A DNA stretch of 64,000 bases from Ostreococcus lucimarinus (GCA_000092065.1 CP000600.1); one strand, 5' to 3'. Positions 13,137-27,162 are shown, numbered from the stretch's first letter. Translations and numbers: made by a program. Notes: generated by a model from the letters alone, not told the origin.

Positions 13137-15899
13137 ATGCCCGAAGGCGTGGGTGATGGCTTACCGTTTGGAAGAAGCCGTCAGCGGGCGTACGGTGATA
13201 TCACGCGTGCGCTCACGCGTCCCCCCCGTGAAGACCTGAGCGCCGCGGCGAGCCACACCGAGAATCGCAACCACGACCGCGCGGACCGGCGCTCCGTGGG
13301 AGGCGAGATCGATCTCTTGAGGCGGGAAATCACGCGTGTACAGAAAGCCTTGACTGATTTGAAGGCGAAGAGAATCGAAAATAAATCGCCAAACGCTCTT
13401 CCGGAGCGTAAGCGATGGAGCGTCATGGATCGCTGCAGGCCAACGAGGAAGTGCGACGAAAAGGACGAGAGACATTCGTTGAAACCTTCGCTCGTTCGCG
13501 ACATGAGTGCTCGACAGCTCATCCTGCGGAAACCACCCGAGCCTGCAACGCGTGGAATGGCTATCATGCTGTTGCGACGGCTAGACGACGTCTTGCCAGA
13601 GGGCGCCATCGAGAACAAGTGCGCCGAGCTGAGCAAGATGGGCGGTTTGGGAACGGTGAGTGGAGCGCTCGCGCGGTACGCAAGCTTGCACATCGACACG
13701 TTTAGCGACGACTTTGAGATAATCGATACCGCGTTCCGAGAGAGTGCTCGGCAAGTGAGCGCTGGGTGTAGAGATCGAGGCGAGTTGTTGGATGCGATCC
13801 GCGAACGCTACGGAGAGCTCTTCTCCACGATGCGCAACGTGTGTGACCGGTGGCAGCGACGAAACGAGTCTCTCGTCATCGAGCTTGACGAACTTCAAGG
13901 CGCGCTGGAGACGAAAGAGAACGAGCAACTCGCGCTCACAGAGCGCGTTGCGAGATGTAAATTCGAAGCCGATTCTGCAAGACGACGGCAGCAAGTTGAT
14001 AACGAGCGGGCAGATTTAATGACTAAACGGTCGCGTGCGAGGGAAAACGAATTAATGATGATGCAGAAAATTGACCGTGCCGAGATTCATCGATTGCATG
14101 AGCGCCTAAAACTGATGGAGACTCAATCAAGGCGTGATCTTGAATTCGCGGTGATGTCGATGGAGCAGTCGCTCTACGACGCTCTCAACGACAGAGACAA
14201 TCTCTCGAAGCGCGTAAGGTTTTTGGACAATCAGCTGCTCCAGACGCGCATGATGCTTCCGGATAAATCGTGTTACTCCACTACAGAGACCCAAACCTTG
14301 GAACGCATGGATGGCCAGTCGACGTACAAGGGTGAAGCAGCAGCAACCGCGGGCGTATCGGCTGAGGTGCAAACCGACCACGTAGTGATCTCGAAGCGTC
14401 GACGCAAAGAAAAAGCTTCGAGGAGTGGAATGGATGGTAAAGATACGAGGTTGCACGCCCCAGATCTCGGCACGGACGCGGATCAATGGAAGCGCGAGAT
14501 TCTCGGCGGTTTCGCCACTCTCATAACTTCGCAAAAGATTGGTCGGCGGAAACCACGCGCTTGGGTACTCAAATGTATCGCGCACATATACACCGATAAG
14601 CTCACGCTCGACTCGACAGCGCAGATAAATGGCGACGACGGCGCGATGTGTGACGCCTCAGCGCAGCCACTCACGAATTTCGTGTACGATTGGCATCTGC
14701 ACAAGTTTGGGTTGAAGCAACTCGCCGAAACGAATTTGCACGACTTGATTGCTTCGACGTCGCATCACGCGGAGGAGTGCGGACTGATTTCCCAGTTCGG
14801 CGCGTTTTGTGGTTTCGGCGCACATCGAGCGCATCGAGCACCGGTCTTGACGGATTCGCCGACGGTGACGTTTTATTTACGTCTGCTCGAAGCGCTCGCG
14901 AGCGAAACCAACCTTGGCCAACTATTTATGGAGTTCGGCCTCGGGAACGATTCGAAGATCGACATCACGCCGACTATGACAGGTACGCTCGCACTTACAC
15001 GCGCTCTAGATGCCATCAAGCGCGTGTTTACGGAGTACAAAGACGACGCCTCGGCGCTGAAAGATTTTGTTGGTAAACAACTCGGGATCAAGCATGCGAC
15101 GAACTCGACGACGGTCAAGTTTGCCAGTTTAATGCGGGGGGCGATGGACGAGTACACATCTCGCCGACTCGCGAGTTTGGAAACATTGAAAGCTTTATTT
15201 CTTGCCGCTGATTGCGATGACGATGGCGCTTTGGTGCGAGACGAATTCGCCGCTGCGCTTCGATTGTGCGACTACAAAGTCACCGAACAGTTCGCGGCGA
15301 GGGCGTTCGAATCCTGCGCGACACGACGCGGCGATAAACCTTCAGAGCTATTCGTCGGCGTTGACGCATTTATCAAGTCGTGTCTCATGAACGGGATGGA
15401 GACCTTTCGCGTGATCCCCGAACGTCCGCCGGGCGAAACCGCGGCGACGACGAAAATGACGGCGTCGGCGACATCTTCTCACAAAAATCAAGGCTCATCC
15501 TCCCCGACGGCACCATCGCTCTCCATGTCATCGAACGCGTGGATGGCCCTCGTCGACCAGCACGTCGCCTCTCCCGAAGGCGCGGTCGCCAAACTCCGCG
15601 CCCTTCCGCCCGGCGTCTCCCTGGATCGATGTCGACGCCAACTCCGCCGTCTCGACCAACTCCGCGCCGCGCGCACCGACGGCCAAGCCGCCTACCTCGC
15701 CCTCAAGCTCCTCACCAACGACGTCCGAACCGCCACCGTCCGCGCCAAGGGCGGTTTCAAGCGTCTCGGCGCCACCGTCCTCCACCAAGTCTCCTTCTCC
15801 ATGCGCGCCGCGCGCGTCGAATCCGATCCCACCGTCGTCGCCTCCGCCTCGCCCGATCACCCTCGCGACGACGATTTCGACCCGTTAGCGACGTCCTAA
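13137..15899 (+). CDS. Hypothetical large coiled-coil protein with a canonical EF-hand loop
   Basis: 920-aa ORF with markedly lower GC than its neighbours. Heptad-rich segments (e.g. LKLMETQSRRDLEFAVMSMEQSLYDAL). DCDDDGALVRDE fits the 12-residue EF-hand loop. No antisense ORF of comparable quality. Confidence 0.6.
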   Translation: MPEGVGDGLPFGRSRQRAYGDITRALTRPPREDLSAAASHTENRNHDRADRRSVGGEIDLLRREITRVQKALTDLKAKRIENKSPNALPERKRWSVMDRCRPTRKCDEKDERHSLKPSLVRDMSARQLILRKPPEPATRGMAIMLLRRLDDVLPEGAIENKCAELSKMGGLGTVSGALARYASLHIDTFSDDFEIIDTAFRESARQVSAGCRDRGELLDAIRERYGELFSTMRNVCDRWQRRNESLVIELDELQGALETKENEQLALTERVARCKFEADSARRRQQVDNERADLMTKRSRARENELMMMQKIDRAEIHRLHERLKLMETQSRRDLEFAVMSMEQSLYDALNDRDNLSKRVRFLDNQLLQTRMMLPDKSCYSTTETQTLERMDGQSTYKGEAAATAGVSAEVQTDHVVISKRRRKEKASRSGMDGKDTRLHAPDLGTDADQWKREILGGFATLITSQKIGRRKPRAWVLKCIAHIYTDKLTLDSTAQINGDDGAMCDASAQPLTNFVYDWHLHKFGLKQLAETNLHDLIASTSHHAEECGLISQFGAFCGFGAHRAHRAPVLTDSPTVTFYLRLLEALASETNLGQLFMEFGLGNDSKIDITPTMTGTLALTRALDAIKRVFTEYKDDASALKDFVGKQLGIKHATNSTTVKFASLMRGAMDEYTSRRLASLETLKALFLAADCDDDGALVRDEFAAALRLCDYKVTEQFAARAFESCATRRGDKPSELFVGVDAFIKSCLMNGMETFRVIPERPPGETAATTKMTASATSSHKNQGSSSPTAPSLSMSSNAWMALVDQHVASPEGAVAKLRALPPGVSLDRCRRQLRRLDQLRAARTDGQAAYLALKLLTNDVRTATVRAKGGFKRLGATVLHQVSFSMRAARVESDPTVVASASPDHPRDDDFDPLATS

Positions 15900-18222: not shown

Positions 18223-19080
18223 CTATCTATTACCGACCGGCTTGCTCCCCGCGAACCCCACGCCTTTGGCCTCGGTCAAATCCTCGGGCAACGCGAAGAT
18301 CGAGTTCTTCTGAATGCCCTTCTTCCCCTTCTTCAATCCTTTGCTTTGGAAATTTTGCCAACTGCTCGCCTTTTGGTTTTGCTCGGCGCTTATCTCTTGC
18401 TGCCGCTGCTTATACTTGAACGTCTTCAACTTTTTCCGCTTCAACTCCCGCGTCTCCGAGTCATCCCCGGGCTTAATCTCCAAATTCTTCGGCGGCTCTT
18501 TCCGCACGAACTCCGTCTTTCGCGTCAACTCCACGCGTCTCGGTTCCGGCACGCCGCGATACACCTCTCTCGGCGGCGGCGGCGGCGGCGCCTTCGCCTT
18601 CGTCTTCGCCTGACCCCCGATGTCTATCCTCACATCGCTCGCCTTCACCGCGACTCGCGTGTGGCTCTCCGTCAGGTACACGTCCAGCGTACCGTCGTCC
18701 ATCGCTCGCACGCACCGTCCCCTCCGCCACGCGCCCTCGGCGTCGAGCGCGAGCACGTCCCGTCCCGCGAACGTCCCTCCCAGCGTCGTCGTCGTCGTCG
18801 CCGTCGCCGCCGTCGCGCCTCGCGCGTCGTTCGCGCCGTCACCCGCGCCTAACTCGTCGTCGTCGACGTCGTCCCGCGCCGCGAGCGTCGTCGCCAGGAC
18901 GTCGCGCGTGATTTCAATGACATCCTCGAGCGAATCCTTCAAATCGATCAATTCCTCGTCCCCCGGCGCGTCCGCGAGCGACGCCTCGACGTCCGCGAGC
19001 GAGCGCTCGTACTCATCGAGCTTGGCGCGCAGCTCGTCCGCGGTCTGCGGCGCGTCGTCGTCGTCGGCGGCGTCGGACAT
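18223..19080 (-). CDS. Splicing factor SPF30 / SMNDC1-like (Tudor domain protein)
   Basis: From internal ATG 19080: MSDAADDDDAPQTADELRAKLDEYERSLADVEASL...LIDLKDSLEDVIEITRDVL matches the SPF30 N-terminal helix. Tudor-like block GRDVLALDAEGAWRRGRCVRAMDDGTLDVYL. Lys-rich tail ending KNSIFALPED...GVGFAGSKPVGNR, as in SPF30. The upstream part of the track ORF is S-rich low complexity. Confidence 0.7.
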   Translation of the reverse strand: MSDAADDDDAPQTADELRAKLDEYERSLADVEASLADAPGDEELIDLKDSLEDVIEITRDVLATTLAARDDVDDDELGAGDGANDARGATAATATTTTTLGGTFAGRDVLALDAEGAWRRGRCVRAMDDGTLDVYLTESHTRVAVKASDVRIDIGGQAKTKAKAPPPPPPREVYRGVPEPRRVELTRKTEFVRKEPPKNLEIKPGDDSETRELKRKKLKTFKYKQRQQEISAEQNQKASSWQNFQSKGLKKGKKGIQKNSIFALPEDLTEAKGVGFAGSKPVGNR

Positions 19081-19120
19081 GACGCGGGGCGATGTGACGC
19101 GGCGGCGGCACTTCGTCGCG

Positions 19121-20434
19121 ATGGCGACGCGCGCGATCGCGCCGTCGCTCGCGCGCGCGACGGCGACGCGCGCGCGCGATGTCGCGGATCGCGCGCGCGC
19201 GCGCGCCGGGGACTCGGCGCGCGCGACGGCGACGCGCGGGAAGGGCGCCGCGCGCGCGATGGCGGCGGCGGCGCGACGACGCGCGGTGACGCCGCGCGCG
19301 CGCGCGAGCGACGCGAACGAGGACGAGGACGAGGACGAAGGGCCGGATAAAGATCTCGCGGACGCGTTCTTCGCGCAGATGCCGCGCGAGAACGAGGCGG
19401 AGGACGGCGCGCGGGGGGACGAGGACGCGCGCGACTTCGACGACGACGACGACGACGACGAAAACGTCGAGGTGCTGCCGTACATCGGCGGTGAGCTCCT
19501 GAAACCGGACCCGCCGGGACATAAGTCAGGGTACGCCGCCATCGTCGGACGACCGAACGCGGGGAAGAGCACGCTGATGAATGATTTGGTCGGGACGAAG
19601 CTGAGCATCGTGACGTACAAGCCGCAGACGACGCGGCATCGGATTTTGGGCATCCTGAGCGACGAGAACTCGCAGATGGTGCTTCTGGACACGCCGGGGG
19701 TGATGGTGGAGGAGTTTAATAAGCTGGATGGGATGATGCTGAAGAGCGTGCGGAATTCGATGGCGAACGCGGATGTGTTGTTTTACATCGTGGACGCGGC
19801 GCGGGATCCGTACGGGGCGTGGGAAGGTTTGGCGCCGAAGAAGGGTAAGCGCGTGCCGACGGCGTTGATTTTGAACAAATGTGACATGGTTGGCGATCGT
19901 GAGCGGATCATGGAGTTGATTGAGTACTTTCAAGCGCAAGAGGCGATCGACGAGGTGTTGCCGATTTCGGCGCTCAACTCAACGGGGACGCGCAACGTCA
20001 AAGAGTGGGCGCTGGAACGTTTACCGCTCGGCCCGACGCTTTACCCCAAAGACGCCATCAGCGAGCACCCCGAACGATTCTTCATCGCCGAAATCATCCG
20101 CGAGAAGATATTTTTGCAGTACAAACAAGAGGTGCCGTACAGCACGCAAGTTTGGATCGAGACGCACAAGGAACGCGACGGCGTGAAGAAGGATCTCATC
20201 CTCGCCAAAGTCTTCGTCGAGCGTCAATCTCAAATCGGCATCATCGTCGGCCAAGGCGGGGCGGCGATGAAAAAACTTTCGTCCAGCGCGCGCGCGGACA
20301 TTGAGAAGTTTTTAGGCCGCCCGGTATTTTTAGACATCCAAGTCAAAGTCCGCGACGGCTGGCGCGAAGACGACCGCAGCCTCGAAGACCTCGGCCTGGA
20401 CGACCCCAATAGATTAGAGAGCCCATCCATCTAG
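19121..20434 (+). CDS. GTPase Era (organellar), GTP-binding domain plus C-terminal KH domain
   Basis: G1 GRPNAGKST, G3 DTPG, G4 NKCD. KH region VFVERQSQIGIIVGQGGAAMKKL. Start at ATG 19121 (MATRAIAPSLARATA, presequence-like). The ORF-track extension overlaps the SPF30 coding region on the other strand. Confidence 0.9.
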   Translation: MATRAIAPSLARATATRARDVADRARARAGDSARATATRGKGAARAMAAAARRRAVTPRARASDANEDEDEDEGPDKDLADAFFAQMPRENEAEDGARGDEDARDFDDDDDDDENVEVLPYIGGELLKPDPPGHKSGYAAIVGRPNAGKSTLMNDLVGTKLSIVTYKPQTTRHRILGILSDENSQMVLLDTPGVMVEEFNKLDGMMLKSVRNSMANADVLFYIVDAARDPYGAWEGLAPKKGKRVPTALILNKCDMVGDRERIMELIEYFQAQEAIDEVLPISALNSTGTRNVKEWALERLPLGPTLYPKDAISEHPERFFIAEIIREKIFLQYKQEVPYSTQVWIETHKERDGVKKDLILAKVFVERQSQIGIIVGQGGAAMKKLSSSARADIEKFLGRPVFLDIQVKVRDGWREDDRSLEDLGLDDPNRLESPSI

Positions 20435-20813
20435 ACGACGTTGTCGTGCGAACGCGCGCAGTTTTTCACCTCCGCGGCGTCAAAAACGCCGGCAACCGCG
20501 CGCCCTTCGCGTCTCGCAACCATCTCGCGAACATCTCGCGCGCCTTCGTCTTCGTCGCTTCGCGTCCGACCTCATCCCTCCCGTCGCCGTTTTCCATCGC
20601 TCTGCGCGCGTCTTTATTTTTTCCCGCGTACGTCTTCACCGGCATCCACCACAGCGGTCGATACGTCATCGCTTTATGTCGTCTCGCGTTTCTCCGCGCG
20701 TCGCCGCGGCGTCGCGTTACCCTCGGTTGGAGGATTCTTATCCACTTCCTCTGTTCTCCACACGGCCGCGCGCGTCCACGCGCGCACGCCACGCGCGCGC
20801 GCATCGACGCACG

Positions 20814-23800
20814 ATGCTCGCGCGCGCCGACGTCGTCGCTCGCGCGTCGTCGCTCGCGCTCGCGACGCGCTCGCGACGCGATTTCCCGACGCCGACGCGG
20901 TCGACGATGCGCGCGCGTCGAGCGCCCGCGGCGCGCGTGACGCGCGCGATTCGCGCGCGAGGCGACGCGGGAACGCGCGCGCGCGACGTCGCGCCGGGCG
21001 CGACGCGGCGCGGGGCGTCGGCGACGCCGCGGGCGACGCGACGGCCGAGCGCGAGGGAGACGCGGCCGGAGCTGTACGGCTTGGACGCCTCGTGGGACCC
21101 GCTGACGAGCGGCGATCGGCGGGAGAGCGAGGAGTCGCGAACGCCGCTTCCAGAAACGCTGCCGAACGTGCGATGGGGGACGAGCGCGAGCGAGGCGTAC
21201 GATTTGGTGATTGTCGGGTGCGGACCGGCGGGGCTGACGGCGGCGGACGAGGCGAGCAAGCGCGGATTGCGCGTGGCGTTGATGGATCCGTCGCCGCTCG
21301 CGCCGTGGATGAATAATTACGGGGTGTGGTGCGACGAGTTTAAATCGCTCGGGTTCGATGATTGCTATCGCGCGGTGTGGAACAAGGCGCGAGTTATTAT
21401 AGACGACGGCGACGCCGACGGGAAGATGCTCGACCGCGCGTACGCGCAGGTGGATCGGAAGAAGCTCAAGCAGAAGCTCATCGCGCGCAGCGTGACGCAG
21501 GGCGTGGAGTTTGGTATCGCCGCGGTCGATAGCTGCGATAACAGCGATCCGAACCATTCGGTGGTGACTTTGAGCGATGGACGCAAGGTCTATGCGAAGA
21601 TGGTTTTGGACGCCACTGGGCACTCTCGTAAGCTGGTGGACTTTGATCGCGATTTTACGCCGGGATATCAAGCCGCTTTCGGAATCGTGTGCACAGTGGA
21701 GAAGCACGACTTTCCGTTGGACACGATGCTGTTCATGGACTGGCGAGACGAGCACTTGAGCCCAGAGTTTAAGCGAGCGAACGACAGGTTGCCGACGTTT
21801 TTGTACGCCATGCCTTTCTCGGAAACTGAGGTGTTCCTCGAGGAAACGAGCTTGGTGGCACGACCTGGCTTAGAGTTTGACGACTTGAAGCTCAAGTTGA
21901 AGGAGCGTTTGGATTATTTGGGCGTGAAAGTAACCAAGGTACACGAAGAGGAGTATTGTCTCATTCCCATGGGCGGCGTGTTGCCGACGTTTCCGCAACG
22001 CACGCTCGGCATCGGTGGAACCGCCGGCATGGTCCATCCTAGCACTGGATTTATGGTCGCAAAGACGATGTTATGCGTTAGAACGCTCGTAGGCACGCTT
22101 GATGAAGCCCTTAAGGCGGGTAAGCGAGGGGATATTACCGGCGCCCTGGAAGCGGCGGAGGCGGCGCAAATGAACAACGGTAAATTCGACGCCGACGCCA
22201 CCGCGGCATTAGTGTGGAACTCAATTTGGCCGGAGAATGATTTGCGCATGCGCACTTTCATGTGCTTTGGAATGGAGACTCTTATGCAGCTCGATATCGA
22301 TGGAACGCGTCAATTCTTTGACACGTTCTTCGACCTTCCCAAGGACGTCTGGGCTGGCTTTTTGAGCTGGCGAATCCAGCCGGTGGGCTTGCTTTCGCTC
22401 GGGGTGAATCTGTTCGCGTTGTTTTCGAACTACATGCGAGTTAACTTTGTCAAATCCGCTCTGCCTTTCATGGGGTCGTTCTTCGCAAACTTTGCGTTCG
22501 CCGACAACAAGTTTGACTCGAGCAAGTGGGGCGGTTTCATCCTCGAAGATGGCAAAAACAACGCCTTCAAGTCGGTCGAAAACGGGCCTATTCCCGCCCC
22601 GGTCGGAAATCCCACTGCGAAACCGATCACAAGCAGCGCATTAGACTTTGAGAAGATCTTAGCCGAAGACACACTGAGCAAGCCGCAGGACATGAAGCCG
22701 GAGACGATGAAGGATGATCGCGAATGGATTGCGTTTCAACAGCGCAAGGTGTTTAGTGAGCAAAAGCAAATCAAAGAGTACCTCAGTGCTTTGAACGACC
22801 GCGACAAGGTCGACGTTCTCGTTGTCGGTGCGGGCCCCGCAGGTCTGGCGATCGCAGCGGAGACGGCGAAGAAGGGTCTTTCTGTTGGTCTCGTCGCACC
22901 AGACACCCCGTTCGTGAACAACTACGGAGTATGGCTCGACGAGTTCAAAGATCTAGGGCTCGAACACTGCTTGCTTCATAAGTATGACGACGCATTGGTT
23001 TGGTTCGATGATTCTGATCCTGCGAGTGGAACTGAACTCGGTCGACCTTACGGTCAAGTGTGCCGCAGGCGTCTTCGCGACCATTTGTTGAAGGAGTGCG
23101 CGGCGGCTGGCGTCAAGTATTTACCAGGCCTGGTAGATTTTGTGCGTCACGGTGACGTCGAAAAGAACGAGTTAGCCGAAGTTCGAGGCACCATCATTAG
23201 CGATTCCGATATTACCGCAAGCGAGAAGAAGTTGATCGAAGAAGAGGCAAACAGAGGCCAGCAATTCACGTTGAATTCGCGTCTCGTCGTTGCCGGCACC
23301 GGTCACAACCGCGACATGCTCAGCTACGAAGAGGGTGCGCCGCCGGGCTGGCAGACTGCGTATGGCGTTGAGGTGCGCATTCCGAACCACGGTTTTCCCG
23401 TGAACAAGGCCGTGTTCATGGATTTTCGTCAAAGCGATCCGGAGGCGATGAAAGAGGAACAAGACGAGGGCGTTTGGCGCGTGCCGTCTTTCCTTTACGT
23501 GTTACCCGTGGACAAGGATGTGGTGTTCGTCGAGGAGACGTGCCTCGTCGCGCGCGTACAAGTGCCGTTCGATGAACTCAAACGGCGATTGTATCGTCGT
23601 ATGAAGCGGATGGGTATGGAAATCGTCGAAGAAGACATCTTGGAAGTCGAGGCGAGTTGGATTCCACTGGGCGGTACCCCGCCGGTTGCCCCGCAACGCA
23701 CCATCGCGTACGGTGCAGCAGCCGGCATGGTCCACCCTGCGTCTGGCTACTCCGTCGTAAACAGTATTAGCAAAGCTCCGCGTGTTGCGACGGCCATGGC

Positions 23801-25142
23801 CGAAGGCTTGAAGGAGGGTGGCGAGATTGAGGCGAGCCGAAGAGCGTGGGAAATCCTTTGGGGTGCGGAGCCACGAAGACAAATCGGTTTCTACCAGTTC
23901 GGTATGGAGCTTCTCATGTCGCTTCGCATCGAGCAGATGCGCAACTTCTTTAGTACCTTCTTTGCGCTTCCAACAAATCTGAGCAGAGGATTTTTGGGTA
24001 ACAGATTGTCGAGCTCAGAGTTGATCATGTTTGCTCTCACTACGTTCGCAATTGGTAACAACGAACTTCGTGGGTTGTTGCTCGCTCACCTGGTTTCAGC
24101 TGGGGGTTCTGGCAGTCGGTTGGCCAAGGCGTATGCATATCCTTTGTTTCCGAAGGATGAGAGTGGTTTAGATGTGTTACAAGTCAACCGCAAAGAGCAA
24201 GCGGACGCGAAAAACACGACGAAGATGATGGCAGACTTTTACGAGTCCCAGCAAGGAGGCATGCTTCCCGGATACATGGGCCGAGATTGGTGGTCGATCG
24301 GGAGACGTGGAAACGGTGAGGAGCACGACGACGACGACGGCACCGACGGCGGTCGTTTCGGCGGCGGTGGTGGCGCTCAAGTTTCCGCTTCAGCGCAAAG
24401 AGAAGAGGTCACCATTGGCGCCATGAAGATGGACGCGTCCAACGAAGGTGCGGTCACGTTTTGGTCCAACGGAAGCGCTGCAATGATCGTAACGAGTGCG
24501 GTACGCAAAACTGGTCTCAGTCAAACTGATCTCTACGGCGAACGACGCAAAAAGTTTTTGCCGTCGGCGTTCATTTCCCAAGCGCCGAATGTCGTCCCGC
24601 CGCACCTCACCGGTTCTCTTCCTGGTGATATTGGATGGGATCCTTTGGCGCTCGGTGCGCAAAGCGATATCGAACGCTATCGCGCGAGAGAATTGATTCA
24701 CGGTCGATGGGCCATGCTCGCGTGCATCGGCGTGCTCGTCCCCGAATTCCTCGCGCACAACTCCATCTTCGGCACCCCGGACCAGCACTGGTGGAACACG
24801 CAAATCATCAACGACCCCATCGATGGCTTACAGCTCACCTACCTCGGGGAAACAATTCCTTGGGGCTTATTCTGGCTTCCCATCATCCACCTTCCGCTCA
24901 TGTTTGTCGCGGAATCTCTTCGCAACGGCACCTACGAGGTCGAGGCGTTCAAGGATTTGGACAAGCTCTACCCCGGCGGCCGTCTCTTCGATCCCCTCGG
25001 CCTCGCCGCGGGCCAAACCGAGGAAGATTTGAACATCTTAAAAACCATCGAGATTCAGCACGCTCGATTGGCGATGATCGGGACTTTCGTCTTCATCGTC
25101 GAGGGCTTAGCCGGCGGTCGCGGACCCCTCGATTTCTTTTAG
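20814..25142 (+). CDS. Lycopene beta-cyclase / lycopene epsilon-cyclase / light-harvesting-complex (LHC) three-domain fusion protein, chloroplast-targeted
   Basis: Two tandem CrtL-type cyclase domains, each with an FAD dinucleotide-binding motif (DLVIVGCGPAGL and DVLVVGAGPAGLAIA) and FLEETSLVARP / FVEETCLVAR motifs. C-terminal chlorophyll a/b-binding domain (ELIHGRWAMLACIGVLVPE ... EIQHARLAMIGTFVFIVEG). Single uninterrupted ORF. Start taken at ATG 20814 (cTP-like) because the 5' extension of the ORF has AT-ending codons. Confidence 0.9.
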   Translation: MLARADVVARASSLALATRSRRDFPTPTRSTMRARRAPAARVTRAIRARGDAGTRARDVAPGATRRGASATPRATRRPSARETRPELYGLDASWDPLTSGDRRESEESRTPLPETLPNVRWGTSASEAYDLVIVGCGPAGLTAADEASKRGLRVALMDPSPLAPWMNNYGVWCDEFKSLGFDDCYRAVWNKARVIIDDGDADGKMLDRAYAQVDRKKLKQKLIARSVTQGVEFGIAAVDSCDNSDPNHSVVTLSDGRKVYAKMVLDATGHSRKLVDFDRDFTPGYQAAFGIVCTVEKHDFPLDTMLFMDWRDEHLSPEFKRANDRLPTFLYAMPFSETEVFLEETSLVARPGLEFDDLKLKLKERLDYLGVKVTKVHEEEYCLIPMGGVLPTFPQRTLGIGGTAGMVHPSTGFMVAKTMLCVRTLVGTLDEALKAGKRGDITGALEAAEAAQMNNGKFDADATAALVWNSIWPENDLRMRTFMCFGMETLMQLDIDGTRQFFDTFFDLPKDVWAGFLSWRIQPVGLLSLGVNLFALFSNYMRVNFVKSALPFMGSFFANFAFADNKFDSSKWGGFILEDGKNNAFKSVENGPIPAPVGNPTAKPITSSALDFEKILAEDTLSKPQDMKPETMKDDREWIAFQQRKVFSEQKQIKEYLSALNDRDKVDVLVVGAGPAGLAIAAETAKKGLSVGLVAPDTPFVNNYGVWLDEFKDLGLEHCLLHKYDDALVWFDDSDPASGTELGRPYGQVCRRRLRDHLLKECAAAGVKYLPGLVDFVRHGDVEKNELAEVRGTIISDSDITASEKKLIEEEANRGQQFTLNSRLVVAGTGHNRDMLSYEEGAPPGWQTAYGVEVRIPNHGFPVNKAVFMDFRQSDPEAMKEEQDEGVWRVPSFLYVLPVDKDVVFVEETCLVARVQVPFDELKRRLYRRMKRMGMEIVEEDILEVEASWIPLGGTPPVAPQRTIAYGAAAGMVHPASGYSVVNSISKAPRVATAMAEGLKEGGEIEASRRAWEILWGAEPRRQIGFYQFGMELLMSLRIEQMRNFFSTFFALPTNLSRGFLGNRLSSSELIMFALTTFAIGNNELRGLLLAHLVSAGGSGSRLAKAYAYPLFPKDESGLDVLQVNRKEQADAKNTTKMMADFYESQQGGMLPGYMGRDWWSIGRRGNGEEHDDDDGTDGGRFGGGGGAQVSASAQREEVTIGAMKMDASNEGAVTFWSNGSAAMIVTSAVRKTGLSQTDLYGERRKKFLPSAFISQAPNVVPPHLTGSLPGDIGWDPLALGAQSDIERYRARELIHGRWAMLACIGVLVPEFLAHNSIFGTPDQHWWNTQIINDPIDGLQLTYLGETIPWGLFWLPIIHLPLMFVAESLRNGTYEVEAFKDLDKLYPGGRLFDPLGLAAGQTEEDLNILKTIEIQHARLAMIGTFVFIVEGLAGGRGPLDFF

Positions 25143-25408
25143 AATCGAACCCCGCCGACGCGTCGCCGACCGATCTCGCGTCCATCGCGCTTAAAGCGCG
25201 CGCGCGCATGTAGCAAAATTATAAATTCAATCGCAGCGATTCATTCTCGCGCCCATCGTCCGCGAGCGACCCCTCGCGCGCGCCGCTCTGGGGGTTCCCT
25301 CCCGAACGCCCCGCGCTCGCGCGCTCGATCGTCCCGGGAGATCTCAGAATTCCCATCCATCGTCTTCATTCCTTCGCGCGTCGCCGACGTTCGCGCCCGA
25401 TCGACGCC

Positions 25409-27162
25409 ATGGCCGCCATGCTCGACCAATCCCTCGACGCCATGATCAAGGACGCCGCGAAAGCCACGCCGAAGCGTCGCAACGCGAAGAAATCCGCCAA
25501 CGTCAAGGTGGGCGGGAAGAAGAATGCGCGATCGGCGATGAAGAAAACGAACGCCGGCCCGACGCCCATGGCGGTCGGTGGCGTGAAGAAGACGAAGAAT
25601 AACAAGAAGAAACCGGCGCGATCGAACGCGGCGACGGCGATGGCGGTCGACGGCATGATGCGCGGAGGCGGAGGACGACAGGCGAACGCGCAGGCGGGCG
25701 GACGCACGAAGCTCGTCGTCGGGAACCTGGACTTTAAGGTGAACGATAGAGATATCAAGGTAAGGAGACGCGCGACGTTAGCATGGGAAGGACCGTCGGT
25801 GCGCGCGTGAATAGAACTCGCTCGTAGAGCGAGGGCGCGCACCGATGGAGTGTGGGGGATGATATCGACGACGAATGACGATCGCGTCGGTCGAGTATCG
25901 CGGGAATTCGGATCGACTCGCGTGGATGGATCGACCAACGAAAGCGTTCGCGCGAGACGCGGTGGTGAGAGCGATGCGTCAACGCGCGACGTGCGGTGGG
26001 ATGTATTCCTCATCGGCGCGCGCGTGACGGTATCGCTCGTTTATTGAGACTTTAGAGCGTCGACGTCGCGTGGGCACCCCATCCGTTCGTCGCGAGGCGA
26101 AGAAGCGTTCGTCGTGGCTGCGAGCGACGAACCACGCGCGGATCGTTGTCGCCCGAACACACAGGGCTGGATAAAACAACGCGCGCGCCTCGGCAACGGT
26201 ACGATGGGGAGCGACGTCACGCGAGAGTTTTCAGAAACGCCGCCTCGAGCGCTCGCGCGAACAAATTTATTGCGGCGATGCGTTTCGCTCGAGCGAACGG
26301 CGATCGGCTCTGAACGCGACTTATTTTTTCAGTTTCGCGAGTTTACGACGCAAGCGGTGGGGACAAAATCCGCGCAAACGATGTCTAAACCACACAGAGC
26401 TCGAATCCGTCGTTCGACTCGAGCGAACACCCTTCATTGGAGAGATGCGGCTTGCGGATATTTCTGGCCGGCTCGGCGGTTTCCATTTTTTCAGCGAAAC
26501 CGCCGCTTGGTTGATCAATTCGCTCGAGATACGGAACTCACACTAGCCCTCGCGCGATGCGCCCCGAAACTCGACCTCGACTACGCTCACGTAGATTTAT
26601 TTTCGCTCGTTCTACGTGGCTCGACTCTCGCACTCTCGATTTCCTGAAGGATGAAAGTATTGATGATTTCGCCGCGGCTATTGCCCTTCCCCGTTTATCA
26701 CAGGAACTCTTCGGACAAGTCGGACGCGTGCTCAACGCTGGCATCAACTACGGCCCCAACGGCAAGTCCAAGGGTACCGCCGAAGTCACGCTGGCCACGC
26801 TCGAATCCGCGCTCAAGGCGGTGAAGACGTACAACGGAGTCAAGCTCGACGGCCGCCCGTTGAACATCGTCATCGTCGACGCTCCGCAACAACCCAAGCA
26901 GAAGCCGATCACCCAACGTCTTTCTGGCTTGAAGCAGCAACCGAAGAACAAGAATGGCAAGCAACAGCAAAAGAAGGCCCCTGTGCCCGCTCCCAAGCGC
27001 GGCAAGGCGACGCAAAAGGTTGTCGCCTCGGCCAAGAAAGCCGCGCCGAAGAAAAAGCCGGCGCGCAAGCCCAAAGAGAAGAAGGCGGCCCCCACCGCCG
27101 CGGACTTGGACGCCTCGTTGGACGCGTACAAGGCTTCTGCCGACGTCCAAATGGCCGCTTAG
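25409..27162 (+). CDS. mRNA export adaptor ALY/REF (THO complex subunit 4) homologue; two exons (25409..25759, 26704..27162)
   Basis: Exon 1 has the N-terminal UAP56-binding-like MLDQSLDAMIK, an R/G/K-rich region and the start of the RRM (TKLVVGNLDFKVNDRDIK). GTAAGG donor at 25760. Exon 2 continues the RRM (ELFGQVGRVLNAGINYGPNGKSKGTAEVTL) and ends with the conserved C-motif AADLDASLDAYKA. Confidence 0.8.
25760..26703 (+). other. Unusually long (944 nt), lower-GC intron of the ALY/REF gene
   Basis: GTAAGG donor, pyrimidine-rich ...ccccgtttatcacAG acceptor. Differs in composition and termini from the short GC-rich introns elsewhere in the window. Confidence 0.7.

Follow-up and report, generated by a model that had tools for sequence, protein, structure and literature searches.

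A continuous reading frame for the lycopene cyclase–LHC fusion protein OluLCY in Ostreococcus lucimarinus

Results

The window, a stretch of 64,000 nucleotides from Ostreococcus lucimarinus, contains one ORF of 1488 uninterrupted codons on the plus strand (20676..25142). All amino acid positions refer to this 1488-aa ORF and are counted from its upstream ATG at 20676; the start at 20814 is its Met47. The following features were assigned.

20676..20813, plus strand: in-frame upstream extension of 46 codons from the ATG; ATG and frame not conserved in ortholog L004
20814..25142, plus strand: complete CDS of the LCYB-LCYE-LHC fusion, 1442 aa and stop, intron not required
20814..21185, plus strand: transit-peptide-like N-terminal extension, aa 47–170 (composition, fast evolution)
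21186..22475, plus strand: LCYB domain, aa 171–600 (Pfam, TIGR01790, tree, EETS signature, AlphaFold)
21216–21233, plus strand: GxGxxG of the LCYB domain, GCGPAG at aa 181
21834–21848, plus strand: FLEET(S) of the LCYB domain, aa 387
22476..22790, plus strand: linker 1, aa 601–705, flexible core about aa 617–680
22791..24110, plus strand: LCYE domain, aa 706–1145 (Pfam, TIGR01790, tree, EETC signature, AlphaFold)
22827–22844, plus strand: GxGxxG of the LCYE domain, GAGPAG at aa 718
23181..23246, plus strand: in-frame 66-nt GT...AG segment, aa 836–857, spliced out in XP_001422490.1, coding here
23526–23540, plus strand: FVEET(C) of the LCYE domain, aa 951
24111..24575, plus strand: linker 2, aa 1146–1300, partly disordered, without membrane helix
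24576..25139, plus strand: LHC (chlorophyll a/b-binding) domain, aa 1301–1488 (PF00504, PDB matches, ligand mapping)
24660–24758, 24861–24923 and 25020–25115, plus strand: LHC membrane helices 1, 2 and 3 (hydropathy, AlphaFold model)

The expectation of a single ORF was borne out by one open plus-strand frame from 20814 to 25142, free of stop codons across 4.3 kb. The protein length given in the original prediction, 1440 aa, has to be corrected to 1442 aa for the start at 20814; a database protein (P0001) of exactly 1442 aa is 100% identical to the protein started there, and the orthologs show uninterrupted ORFs of 1442–1498 aa. A start at 20676 was rejected because GTG replaces the ATG in the 96%-identical ortholog L004. 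Between this ATG and Met47, indels of +12 and −4 nt relative to L004 break the frame. Since neither upstream ATG nor frame is conserved, 20814 is the best start and 20676..20813 is probably non-coding 5′ UTR. The Era-type GTPase gene found upstream is in conserved synteny in orthologs. Six ORFs overlapping the gene in other frames or antisense gave zero Pfam matches and are taken as by-products of the 62% G+C. Rfam yielded zero matches across the whole window, and a scan for promoters and terminators of the bacterial type, which is not applicable to a eukaryote, gave matches no more than expected by chance.

The N-terminal extension (124 aa) is rich in Arg, Ala, Ser and Thr, with 26 basic versus 13 acidic residues, 25 S+T and 21 A; a Pfam search found zero domains in it. 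With a dN/dS of 0.49–0.55 it evolves fast, and its identity is 87% in the 96%-identical ortholog and 9–46% in more distant ones. We regard aa 47–170 as a putative chloroplast targeting extension. The LCYE and LHC parts are each devoid of a transit-peptide-like leader of their own.

Two complete cyclase domains had been predicted, and the second was indeed recovered by both domain searches. Lycopene_cycl (PF05834) matches with E=1e-205 in two stretches, aa 176–588 and about 713–1140, and TIGR01790, with each cyclase part scanned alone, gives 352 bits for domain 1 and 335 bits for domain 2 (cutoff 209.5); each domain carries a GxGxxG and a FLEET-type motif. Both also match the cyanobacterial CrtL model of NCBIfam with scores below its cutoff. 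As NCBIfam cannot tell beta from epsilon, this split was made with a neighbor-joining tree (200 bootstraps) of the two domains and 20 named references (10 LCYB, 10 LCYE). In the proposed comparison with plant-type enzymes, the 10 LCYB with domain 1 were separated from the 10 LCYE with domain 2 in 200/200 bootstraps. Mean identity of domain 1 is 49% to LCYB versus 37% to LCYE references, that of domain 2 45% to LCYE versus 38% to LCYB; the best named matches are LCYB for domain 1 (46–51% identity) and all LCYE for domain 2 (41–44%). The signature EETS versus EETC separates all 20 references, and domain 1 (EETS) and domain 2 (EETC) fit, EET being invariant across all orthologs and references. 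The FLEET-type acidic motif carries the catalytic Glu, a role known from plant cyclases. Cunningham and Gantt reportedly found in 2001 that one LCYE residue decides between one and two epsilon rings. In the AlphaFold models, pLDDT is mostly 85–95 in the LCYB and 80–98 in the LCYE domain, and the modelled cyclase fold is closest to FAD-dependent geranylgeranyl reductase and squalene epoxidase; a sequence search for a solved lycopene cyclase structure found none. Domain 1 is LCYB and domain 2 is LCYE, both with retained catalytic FLEET-type motifs and FAD-binding folds. Pfam order and tree also bear out the proposed sequence LCYB-LCYE-LHC.

In RefSeq, the locus is split into the partial models XP_001422489.1 and XP_001422490.1, and it has been described as two coding regions with a short intron between them (PMC5408262). 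Residues 678–1141 are identical to the second model (P0069), from O. lucimarinus CCE9901, at 442/442 aligned positions; the gene is therefore OluLCY of Blatt et al. 2015, an already known fusion from O. lucimarinus. This identity substantiates both the suggested connection with the Ostreococcus fusion in the literature and the use of the fusion as a taxonomic clue, and the fusion is a firm marker for the window as O. lucimarinus nuclear DNA. The 66-nt segment appears as a gap in the alignment to P0069. The RefSeq intron was rejected, as four orthologs keep the segment in frame with conserved residues (VRGT.I.D..KKLIEEE). It is coding and forms a surface-loop insertion in LCYE; pLDDT is low at aa 846–859, within this region. 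Thus, the present reading of the gene corrects the split public models.

Linker 1 is flanked by conserved extensions of the two cyclases. It shows 56% identity to Bathycoccus, some of its residues are invariant across 41 fusion proteins, pLDDT falls below 50 at aa 621–640 and 664–670, and a Pfam search found zero domains. In linker 2, where Pfam gave no credible domain, the first ~60 residues are modelled as folded together with LCYE. A Gly/Asp/Ser-rich disordered stretch extends from about aa 1212 to about 1332, beyond the nominal end of the linker (pLDDT <50 at residues 617–737 in the model's own numbering). A membrane helix, sought in linker 2, was not found (Kyte-Doolittle 19-residue maximum 1.05 versus 1.68 in the LHC helices), and in the section singled out for this check, about aa 1230–1290 in the numbering of the original prediction, the maximum is 0.57 with pLDDT <50. 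This absence is a small addition to a known protein. Values of dN/dS are 0.14–0.15 for linker 1 and 0.08–0.19 for linker 2; purifying selection thus acts on the two linkers in the frame read here, and the fusion is therefore translated. Deletion of linker parts in E. coli reportedly altered the product ratio in the work of Blatt in 2015.

The C-terminal part matches Chloroa_b-bind (PF00504) with E=3e-37 and 128.9 bits (cutoff 22.3) at aa 1308–1476, covering profile positions 2–160 of 162. The two conserved helix motifs of the predicted LHC domain were located as well (ELIHGRWAMLACIG at aa 1339, EIQHARLAMIGTF at aa 1459). Hydropathy peaks lie at aa 1347, 1394 and 1463, and the AlphaFold model places helices at aa 1329–1361, 1396–1416 and 1449–1480 with moderate pLDDT (60–79). 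Among single-domain PDB entries, CP26, Lhca1 and LHCII match best (E~1e-30 to 1e-27); their scores of 109, 105 and 100 bits do not allow a firm assignment to an Lhca or Lhcb subfamily. No substitution occurs at positions E65, R70, E139, R142, E180 and R185 of LHCII in the window protein or any of the 17 orthologs; these positions include the equivalents of the E65/R185 and E180/R70 cross-braces of helices 1 and 3. Across the same proteins H68 varies between H and N, most have H at N183, and Q197 is E or Q; in the window protein H68 is kept, and His and Glu occupy the N183 and Q197 positions. Both DPL(A/G)L motifs are present. Ligand mapping onto LHCII showed that helix D and the H212 ligand are absent, the protein stopping before helix D with its C-terminus 5 residues past the GPL that follows helix 3. 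The full set of LHCII chlorophyll ligands is accordingly incomplete, with nearly all side-chain ligands kept. The domain has a dN/dS of 0.04–0.09, and the 0.036 in the closest pair is the lowest of all parts. Such a tripartite architecture with its motif matches cannot arise by chance.

Three-part ORFs occur in dozens of ortholog clusters with identities down to 45%, Bathycoccus among them, and the continuous frame is kept in orthologs with saturated synonymous sites. Outside Mamiellales, the three-part fusion was found in Pycnococcus and Cymbomonas (Pseudoscourfieldiales, Pyramimonadales). LCYB-LCYE without LHC is present in Pyramimonas obovata, the chlorarachniophyte Gymnochlora sp. CCMP2014 and uncultured freshwater or marine algae; on two contigs with such a gene (L008, L009), LHC-coding sequence was sought over the 1.2–3.7 kb that follow the gene and none was found. 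A candidate for an LCYE-LHC-only protein (P0146) was rejected since its gene begins 30 nt from the contig end, and truncation probably explains why LCYB is absent.

Discussion

OluLCY was cloned and characterised by Blatt, Bauch, Porschke and Lohr (2015, Plant J 82:582, doi 10.1111/tpj.12826), who reportedly described the fusion for Mamiellales; PMC8291087, PMC9686992, PMC5867620 and PMC8535525 cite this work for the Ostreococcus fusion. According to PMC8291087 and PMC5867620, OluLCY produces alpha- and beta-carotene simultaneously in E. coli. The fusion has already been used for alpha-carotene production in bacteria.

Judged from the sequence, the locus is very probably the nuclear gene for OluLCY, predicted to give one mRNA and one polypeptide with a putative targeting extension, LCYB, LCYE and LHC in this order. 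The polypeptide amounts to about 160 kDa, or about 146 kDa from aa 171, behind the transit-peptide-like extension. Two transcript-sized contigs of unspecified sample type (L002, L003) just fit an orthologous ORF; a poly(A) tail was not found in them. AlphaFold models both cyclases and the three LHC helices with a disordered tether between them. As it gives no confident arrangement between the domains (pTM 0.52 and 0.65), channelling and communication from LHC to the cyclases are processes that we infer.

The LHC domain would span either the thylakoid or the envelope membrane, its N-terminus facing the stroma, and this anchoring would hold both cyclases 1:1 on the stromal side of the membrane, where lycopene is located. 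The epsilon domain could then make the monocyclic intermediate, whose other end the adjoining beta domain would close; this succession would favour alpha-carotene, from which the epsilon-ring xanthophylls of Mamiellales derive. The cyclase branch point sets the carotenoid share of the alpha branch (of the lutein or prasinoxanthin type) versus the beta branch; a naturally occurring fusion that couples the cyclases 1:1 and tethers them to an antenna-type domain is an uncommon means of setting this ratio. Binding of chlorophyll and xanthophyll by the LHC domain is probable, as is an effect of this domain on how active the two cyclases are relative to each other. Pigment binding by the LHC part and fixing of the alpha/beta ratio by the fusion are points that we infer beyond the sequence evidence.

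Only tentatively, as a joint proposal that may well fail, we suggest that the LHC domain is a working pigment-binding sensor and that the fusion is far older and wider than Mamiellales. In the first case, chlorophyll or xanthophyll occupancy would feed back on the tethered cyclases, and the alpha/beta branch ratio would be matched to antenna assembly; in the second, the fusion would originate near the base of Chlorophyta, followed by LHC loss or fission, or by transfer to chlorarachniophytes.

Somewhat less probable still is a domain that has lost pigment binding and serves as a mere membrane anchor tethering the cyclases. The stop after helix 3, without helix D or H212, and the merely moderate pLDDT would suit such an anchor, as would the literature found, in which a role of LHC is reported only from E. 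coli (PMC8291087), which is without chlorophyll. However, conservation from Ostreococcus to Pycnococcus and Cymbomonas extends to the positions that act purely as chlorophyll ligands (H68, E139/R142, N183, Q197) and to both xanthophyll motifs of the DPLGL type, and a plain anchor would need neither this nor a constraint as strong as that of the closest pair. Very unlikely is a precursor that, once imported, is cleaved within its disordered linkers to release LCYB, LCYE and LHC as separate proteins, as in the LHC polyproteins of Euglena, so that the fusion would only ensure equal co-expression. Predicted disorder over ~120 residues of linker 2 and the flexible core of ~60 residues in linker 1 would be within reach of a protease. 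Against this stand the purifying selection and invariant residues of the linkers, although cleavage sites may be conserved too, and the shift of the alpha/beta-carotene product ratio by truncation of the LHC end in E. coli (PMC8291087 and PMC9686992), which, like the reported effect of the linker deletions, implies that the domains act while attached. Three separate adjacent genes sharing one frame by chance, as the two partial RefSeq models and the described intron might suggest, are hardly conceivable in view of 4.3 kb without a stop codon, the frame conserved despite synonymous saturation, linker dN/dS of 0.08–0.19, the leaderless LCYE and LHC parts, and the expression of the fusion as a single protein in the published work.

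The single fused polypeptide can be compared with several known systems. Separate LCYB and LCYE, as in Chlorella sorokiniana, Adonis and Arabidopsis, belong to the same CrtL-type flavoprotein family with GxGxxG and FLEET motif, and the window domains share 45–49% identity with the matching paralogs of land plants and core chlorophytes. There, two genes encode two polypeptides of ~500 aa whose independent expression sets the alpha/beta branch ratio, whereas here the cyclases are covalently joined 1:1 with a membrane domain attached. A natural fusion of other carotenoid steps is the fungal lycopene cyclase-phytoene synthase (CrtYB/CarRA), an analogy only, as it combines an unrelated, heterodimer-derived membrane cyclase with another partner enzyme and has no antenna domain. 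CP26 (Lhcb5), Lhca1 and LHCII share with the window LHC the full-length PF00504 match, three helices, Glu-Arg cross-brace pairs, most chlorophyll ligands and the DPLGL motifs. In contrast to them, it forms the C-terminal part of an enzyme and is without its own transit peptide, and in contrast to LHCII it ends after helix 3, without helix D/H212, with N183 replaced by His and Q197 by Glu. The two-domain LCYB-LCYE fusions agree with the window protein in the beta-then-epsilon order and conserved linker 1 residues at 47–58% identity and differ in being without LHC. With OluLCY itself, species, locus and domain order are all the same and there is no difference of substance; its public RefSeq models differ in being split and in the removal of 66 coding nucleotides.

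Gene model and origin

The fusion of lycopene beta-cyclase (LCYB), lycopene epsilon-cyclase (LCYE) and an LHC domain is the published OluLCY gene of Ostreococcus lucimarinus and as such already known. An open reading frame without interruption extends on the plus strand from 20676 to 25142, comprising 1488 codons from the first ATG, and residues are numbered accordingly. Start 20814 corresponds to Met47 and yields 1442 aa, exactly the length of the database protein P0001, which is 100% identical to the window protein. A start at 20676 with 46 extra codons was rejected. In the closest distinct ortholog (contig L004, 96% protein identity) the upstream ATG is replaced by GTG, and indels of +12 and −4 nt occur between this GTG and Met47; conservation as coding sequence thus does not extend to the upstream codons, which makes 20814 the best start. 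The original prediction of a single polypeptide from 20814 was thus right in frame and start, with the length of 1440 aa to be corrected to 1442. The features discussed are:

20814–25142, plus strand, LCYB-LCYE-LHC fusion gene
22476–22790, plus strand, linker 1 (aa 601–705)
23181–23246, plus strand, 66-nt segment treated as an intron in one RefSeq model
24111–24575, plus strand, linker 2 (aa 1146–1300)

Residues 678–1141 were compared with the partial RefSeq model XP_001422490.1 of O. lucimarinus CCE9901. All 442/442 aligned positions are identical, the sole difference being a 22-residue piece omitted by the RefSeq model. Together with the citing papers, this identity confirms the proposed link to an experimentally described Ostreococcus fusion, and the suggestion that the fusion is a taxonomic clue holds as well, the placement of the window being firm. 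The protein was published by Blatt et al. (cited in PMC8291087, PMC9686992). According to the statements on the fusion in these two papers, alpha- and beta-carotene are formed simultaneously, and C-terminal truncation in the light-harvesting domain alters their ratio. It is further mentioned as an engineering target in Ostreococcus (PMC5867620, where a method for homologous recombination in Ostreococcus tauri is cited too), and a single gene of the OluLCY kind is assigned to prasinophytes of the order Mamiellales (PMC8535525). In the window the fusion has neighbours of the usual eukaryotic nuclear type, with an Era-type GTPase upstream and then WDR3/Utp12, a methyltransferase and a metallophosphatase. 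Annotation identifies the Era gene upstream of the fusion in the orthologous contigs L001 and L004 as well; in L005 and L006 a gene without Pfam record occupies the matching place.

Public RefSeq models of the locus are split and partial (XP_001422489.1, XP_001422490.1). The 66 nt cut out by one of them start with GT and end with AG. The intron was rejected, as all four orthologs keep the segment in frame with the conserved residues VRGT.I.D..KKLIEEE; 23181–23246 is coding sequence, which the AlphaFold model of LCYE places in a surface loop of low confidence. Judged by this conservation, the RefSeq models look wrong and the gene appears to be intronless. PMC5408262 speaks in its account of two coding regions "separated by a short intron"; the sequence can be explained without such an intron, since the frame is open throughout.

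Several further open reading frames were noted:

25409–25810, plus strand, 133-aa Lys/Ala/Gly-rich frame just downstream of the fusion gene, no Pfam match
13137–15899, plus strand, 920-aa frame, no Pfam domain at E <1e-4
20466–21755 and 18223–19692, minus strand, long frames overlapping real genes
20441–21316 and 24635–25213, plus strand, long frames overlapping real genes

The first of these probably represents either a genuine small gene or a first exon; a frame of 133–146 aa is called at the matching relative position in L004, L005 and L006, followed in L004 and L005 by an RRM-domain gene. The overlapping frames, in other frames or antisense and up to 489 aa long, gave no Pfam match where tested. 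Such frames typically arise at a G+C content of about 62% and are not to be called genes.

Domains and predicted structure

Two complete cyclase domains followed by an LHC-type domain had been predicted. In the Pfam scan, Lycopene_cycl (PF05834, E=1e-205) matches two stretches, and each cyclase part scanned separately passes TIGR01790 (352 and 335 bits, cutoff 209.5 bits), so that the second cyclase domain was found by domain search as well. GxGxxG motifs are located at aa 181 and 718; domain 1 has FLEET (aa 387) and domain 2 FVEET (aa 951). Chloroa_b-bind (PF00504, E=3e-37) covers profile positions 2–160 of 162 at aa 1308–1476, and the two expected helix motifs lie at aa 1339 and 1459.

Domains 1 and 2 share about 35% identity, equal to that between LCYB and LCYE of other green organisms. 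Used alone as queries, domain 1 matched named lycopene beta-cyclases (46–51% identity) and domain 2 named lycopene epsilon-cyclases (41–44%), including those of Adonis palaestina and Chlorella sorokiniana. Both domains were placed in a neighbour-joining tree together with 10 named LCYBs and 10 named LCYEs; LCYB plus domain 1 was separated from LCYE plus domain 2 in 200/200 bootstraps. The residue after EET is Ser in all ten LCYBs and in domain 1, and Cys in all ten LCYEs and in domain 2. The order is therefore beta, epsilon, LHC, as had been proposed. Among solved structures, the cyclase domain is closest in fold to FAD-dependent geranylgeranyl reductases and squalene epoxidase, and a search by sequence yielded no lycopene cyclase there.

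Arg, Ala, Ser and Thr abound in residues 47–170, which evolve fast and contain no Pfam domain; these features would fit a chloroplast transit peptide. The AlphaFold model of aa 165–1145 (41-sequence alignment) has a mean pLDDT of 84, with both cyclase domains mostly >85 and low confidence only at aa 484–491, 621–640, 664–670 and 846–859; with a pTM of 0.52 it does not define how the two cyclases are positioned towards each other. In the model of aa 596–1488, LCYE is confident and folded to about aa 1205, followed by a Gly/Asp/Ser-rich disordered stretch (about aa 1212–1332) and three long helices (aa 1329–1361, 1396–1416 and 1449–1480; pLDDT 60–79). An additional membrane helix between the second cyclase and the LHC domain, for which a check had been suggested, was rejected: the Kyte-Doolittle maximum (19 residues) is 0.57 in the suggested stretch and 1.05 in the whole of linker 2, compared with 1.68 in the LHC helices. 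The latter linker, otherwise disordered, contains a moderately hydrophobic stretch at 24447–24503 (aa 1258–1276, GAVTFWSNGSAAMIVTSAV), whose value of 1.05 falls short of that expected for a membrane helix; its W-S-x-G motif is present in the majority consensus of fusion proteins.

Evidence for one translated unit

dN/dS was calculated per region by the Nei-Gojobori method from the DNA of four orthologs.

Table. dN/dS of the window gene versus two orthologs (96% and 85%)
Region: 96% ortholog; 85% ortholog
Transit-peptide region: 0.49; 0.55
LCYB: 0.09; 0.05
Linker 1: 0.14; 0.15
LCYE: 0.055; 0.037
Linker 2: 0.19; 0.08
LHC: 0.036; 0.08

From these values it follows that both linkers are translated and constrained at the protein level in the fusion frame. 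The single open frame is kept in 4/4 orthologs despite saturated synonymous sites, and linker 1 contains residues invariant across 41 fusion proteins. MMETSP transcriptomes of Pyramimonas and Gymnochlora carry a two-cyclase fusion on one transcript. No poly(A) tail was found on two contigs barely longer than the orthologous reading frame, whose sample type is not given.

Distribution

The three-part form occurs in Bathycoccus and many uncultured relatives. Outside Mamiellales, at 45–49% identity, it was found in Pseudoscourfieldiales and Pyramimonadales, namely in Pycnococcus provasolii and Pseudoscourfieldia marina (proteins P0460/P0462), and Cymbomonas tetramitiformis (P0023), and also in an unassigned Logan contig protein (P0026/L003). 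The literature consulted names, in its statements on the fusion, only Mamiellales as carriers; no report of the wider spread was found in the literature searched, and one may still be published. Besides the firm placement of the window and the corrected gene model, this wider distribution is a by-product of the analysis.

LCYB-LCYE without LHC occurs in Pyramimonas (P0029, P0031), in the chlorarachniophyte Gymnochlora sp. CCMP2014 (P0032, transcriptome) and in several metagenome proteins; P0038 and P0028 have this form too. Two such genes were located on contigs (P0028/L008, 5001–8030; L009, 550–3579), and no LHC-coding sequence follows within 1.2–3.7 kb. In P0028 the N-terminal FAD motif is set apart from the rest in an upstream piece (L008, 4853–4942), which suggests an intron between the two. 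Two further proteins, P0146 (L007, 30–2174) and P0147, appear as LCYE-LHC. The missing LCYB of P0146 is probably a truncation artefact and not a distinct architecture, because only 30 nt separate the start of the gene from the end of the contig.

Light-harvesting domain and proposed function

Best single-domain PDB matches of the LHC domain (aa 1301–1488) are CP26 (E=2e-30), Lhca1 and LHCII, with scores too close for the subfamily to be assigned, CP26 being slightly ahead. Metagenome annotation pipelines are inconsistent in naming LHC fragments: of the P0005 and P0013 protein clusters, one carries "LHCII protein 7" and the other "LHCI protein 2". Pigment ligands were mapped at LHCII positions in the window protein and 17 orthologs from Ostreococcus to Cymbomonas and Pycnococcus. 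A pea Lhcb1 sequence served as reference; in a prior check against the PDB its residues 1–232 aligned to 1–232 of 1vcr_A, 2bhw_A and 1rwt_A. E65, R70, E139, R142, E180 and R185 do not vary among the window protein and the 17 orthologs; H68 is His or Asn, Q197 Glu or Gln, and N183 is His in Mamiellales fusions. Both DPL(A/G)L motifs, before helices 1 and 3, are present. Predicted ligand residues of the window protein include E1339, H1342, E1413 and H1462.

An LHC domain serving only as membrane anchor is doubtful: the conserved ligand positions, and a dN/dS lower than that of any other part when the closest pair is compared, favour a domain that would still bind pigment.

The sequence establishes the architecture and which cyclase is beta and which epsilon; it also shows that the catalytic and FAD motifs are intact, that the linkers are translated and constrained, and that positions of pigment ligands are conserved. 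According to the literature, in what it states on the fusion, one protein carries both cyclase activities, and its product ratio varies with the C-terminal domain and with the overall build. The N-terminus of LHC proteins lies on the stromal side, so that the LHC domain would hold both cyclases, through a tether some 120 residues long, at the stromal face of the lycopene-containing membrane. A fixed 1:1 stoichiometry and close proximity may favour successive epsilon- and beta-cyclisation to alpha-carotene, which would feed the epsilon-ring xanthophylls typical of Mamiellales, and the ratio could be modulated by how far the LHC domain is filled with pigment. Cleavage into separate proteins after import is quite improbable, and three independent genes in place of one translated unit are very unlikely.

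The fusion protein ends five residues past the GPL that follows helix 3, and for this reason its LHC domain, compared with LHCII, is built without helix D and the H212 ligand.
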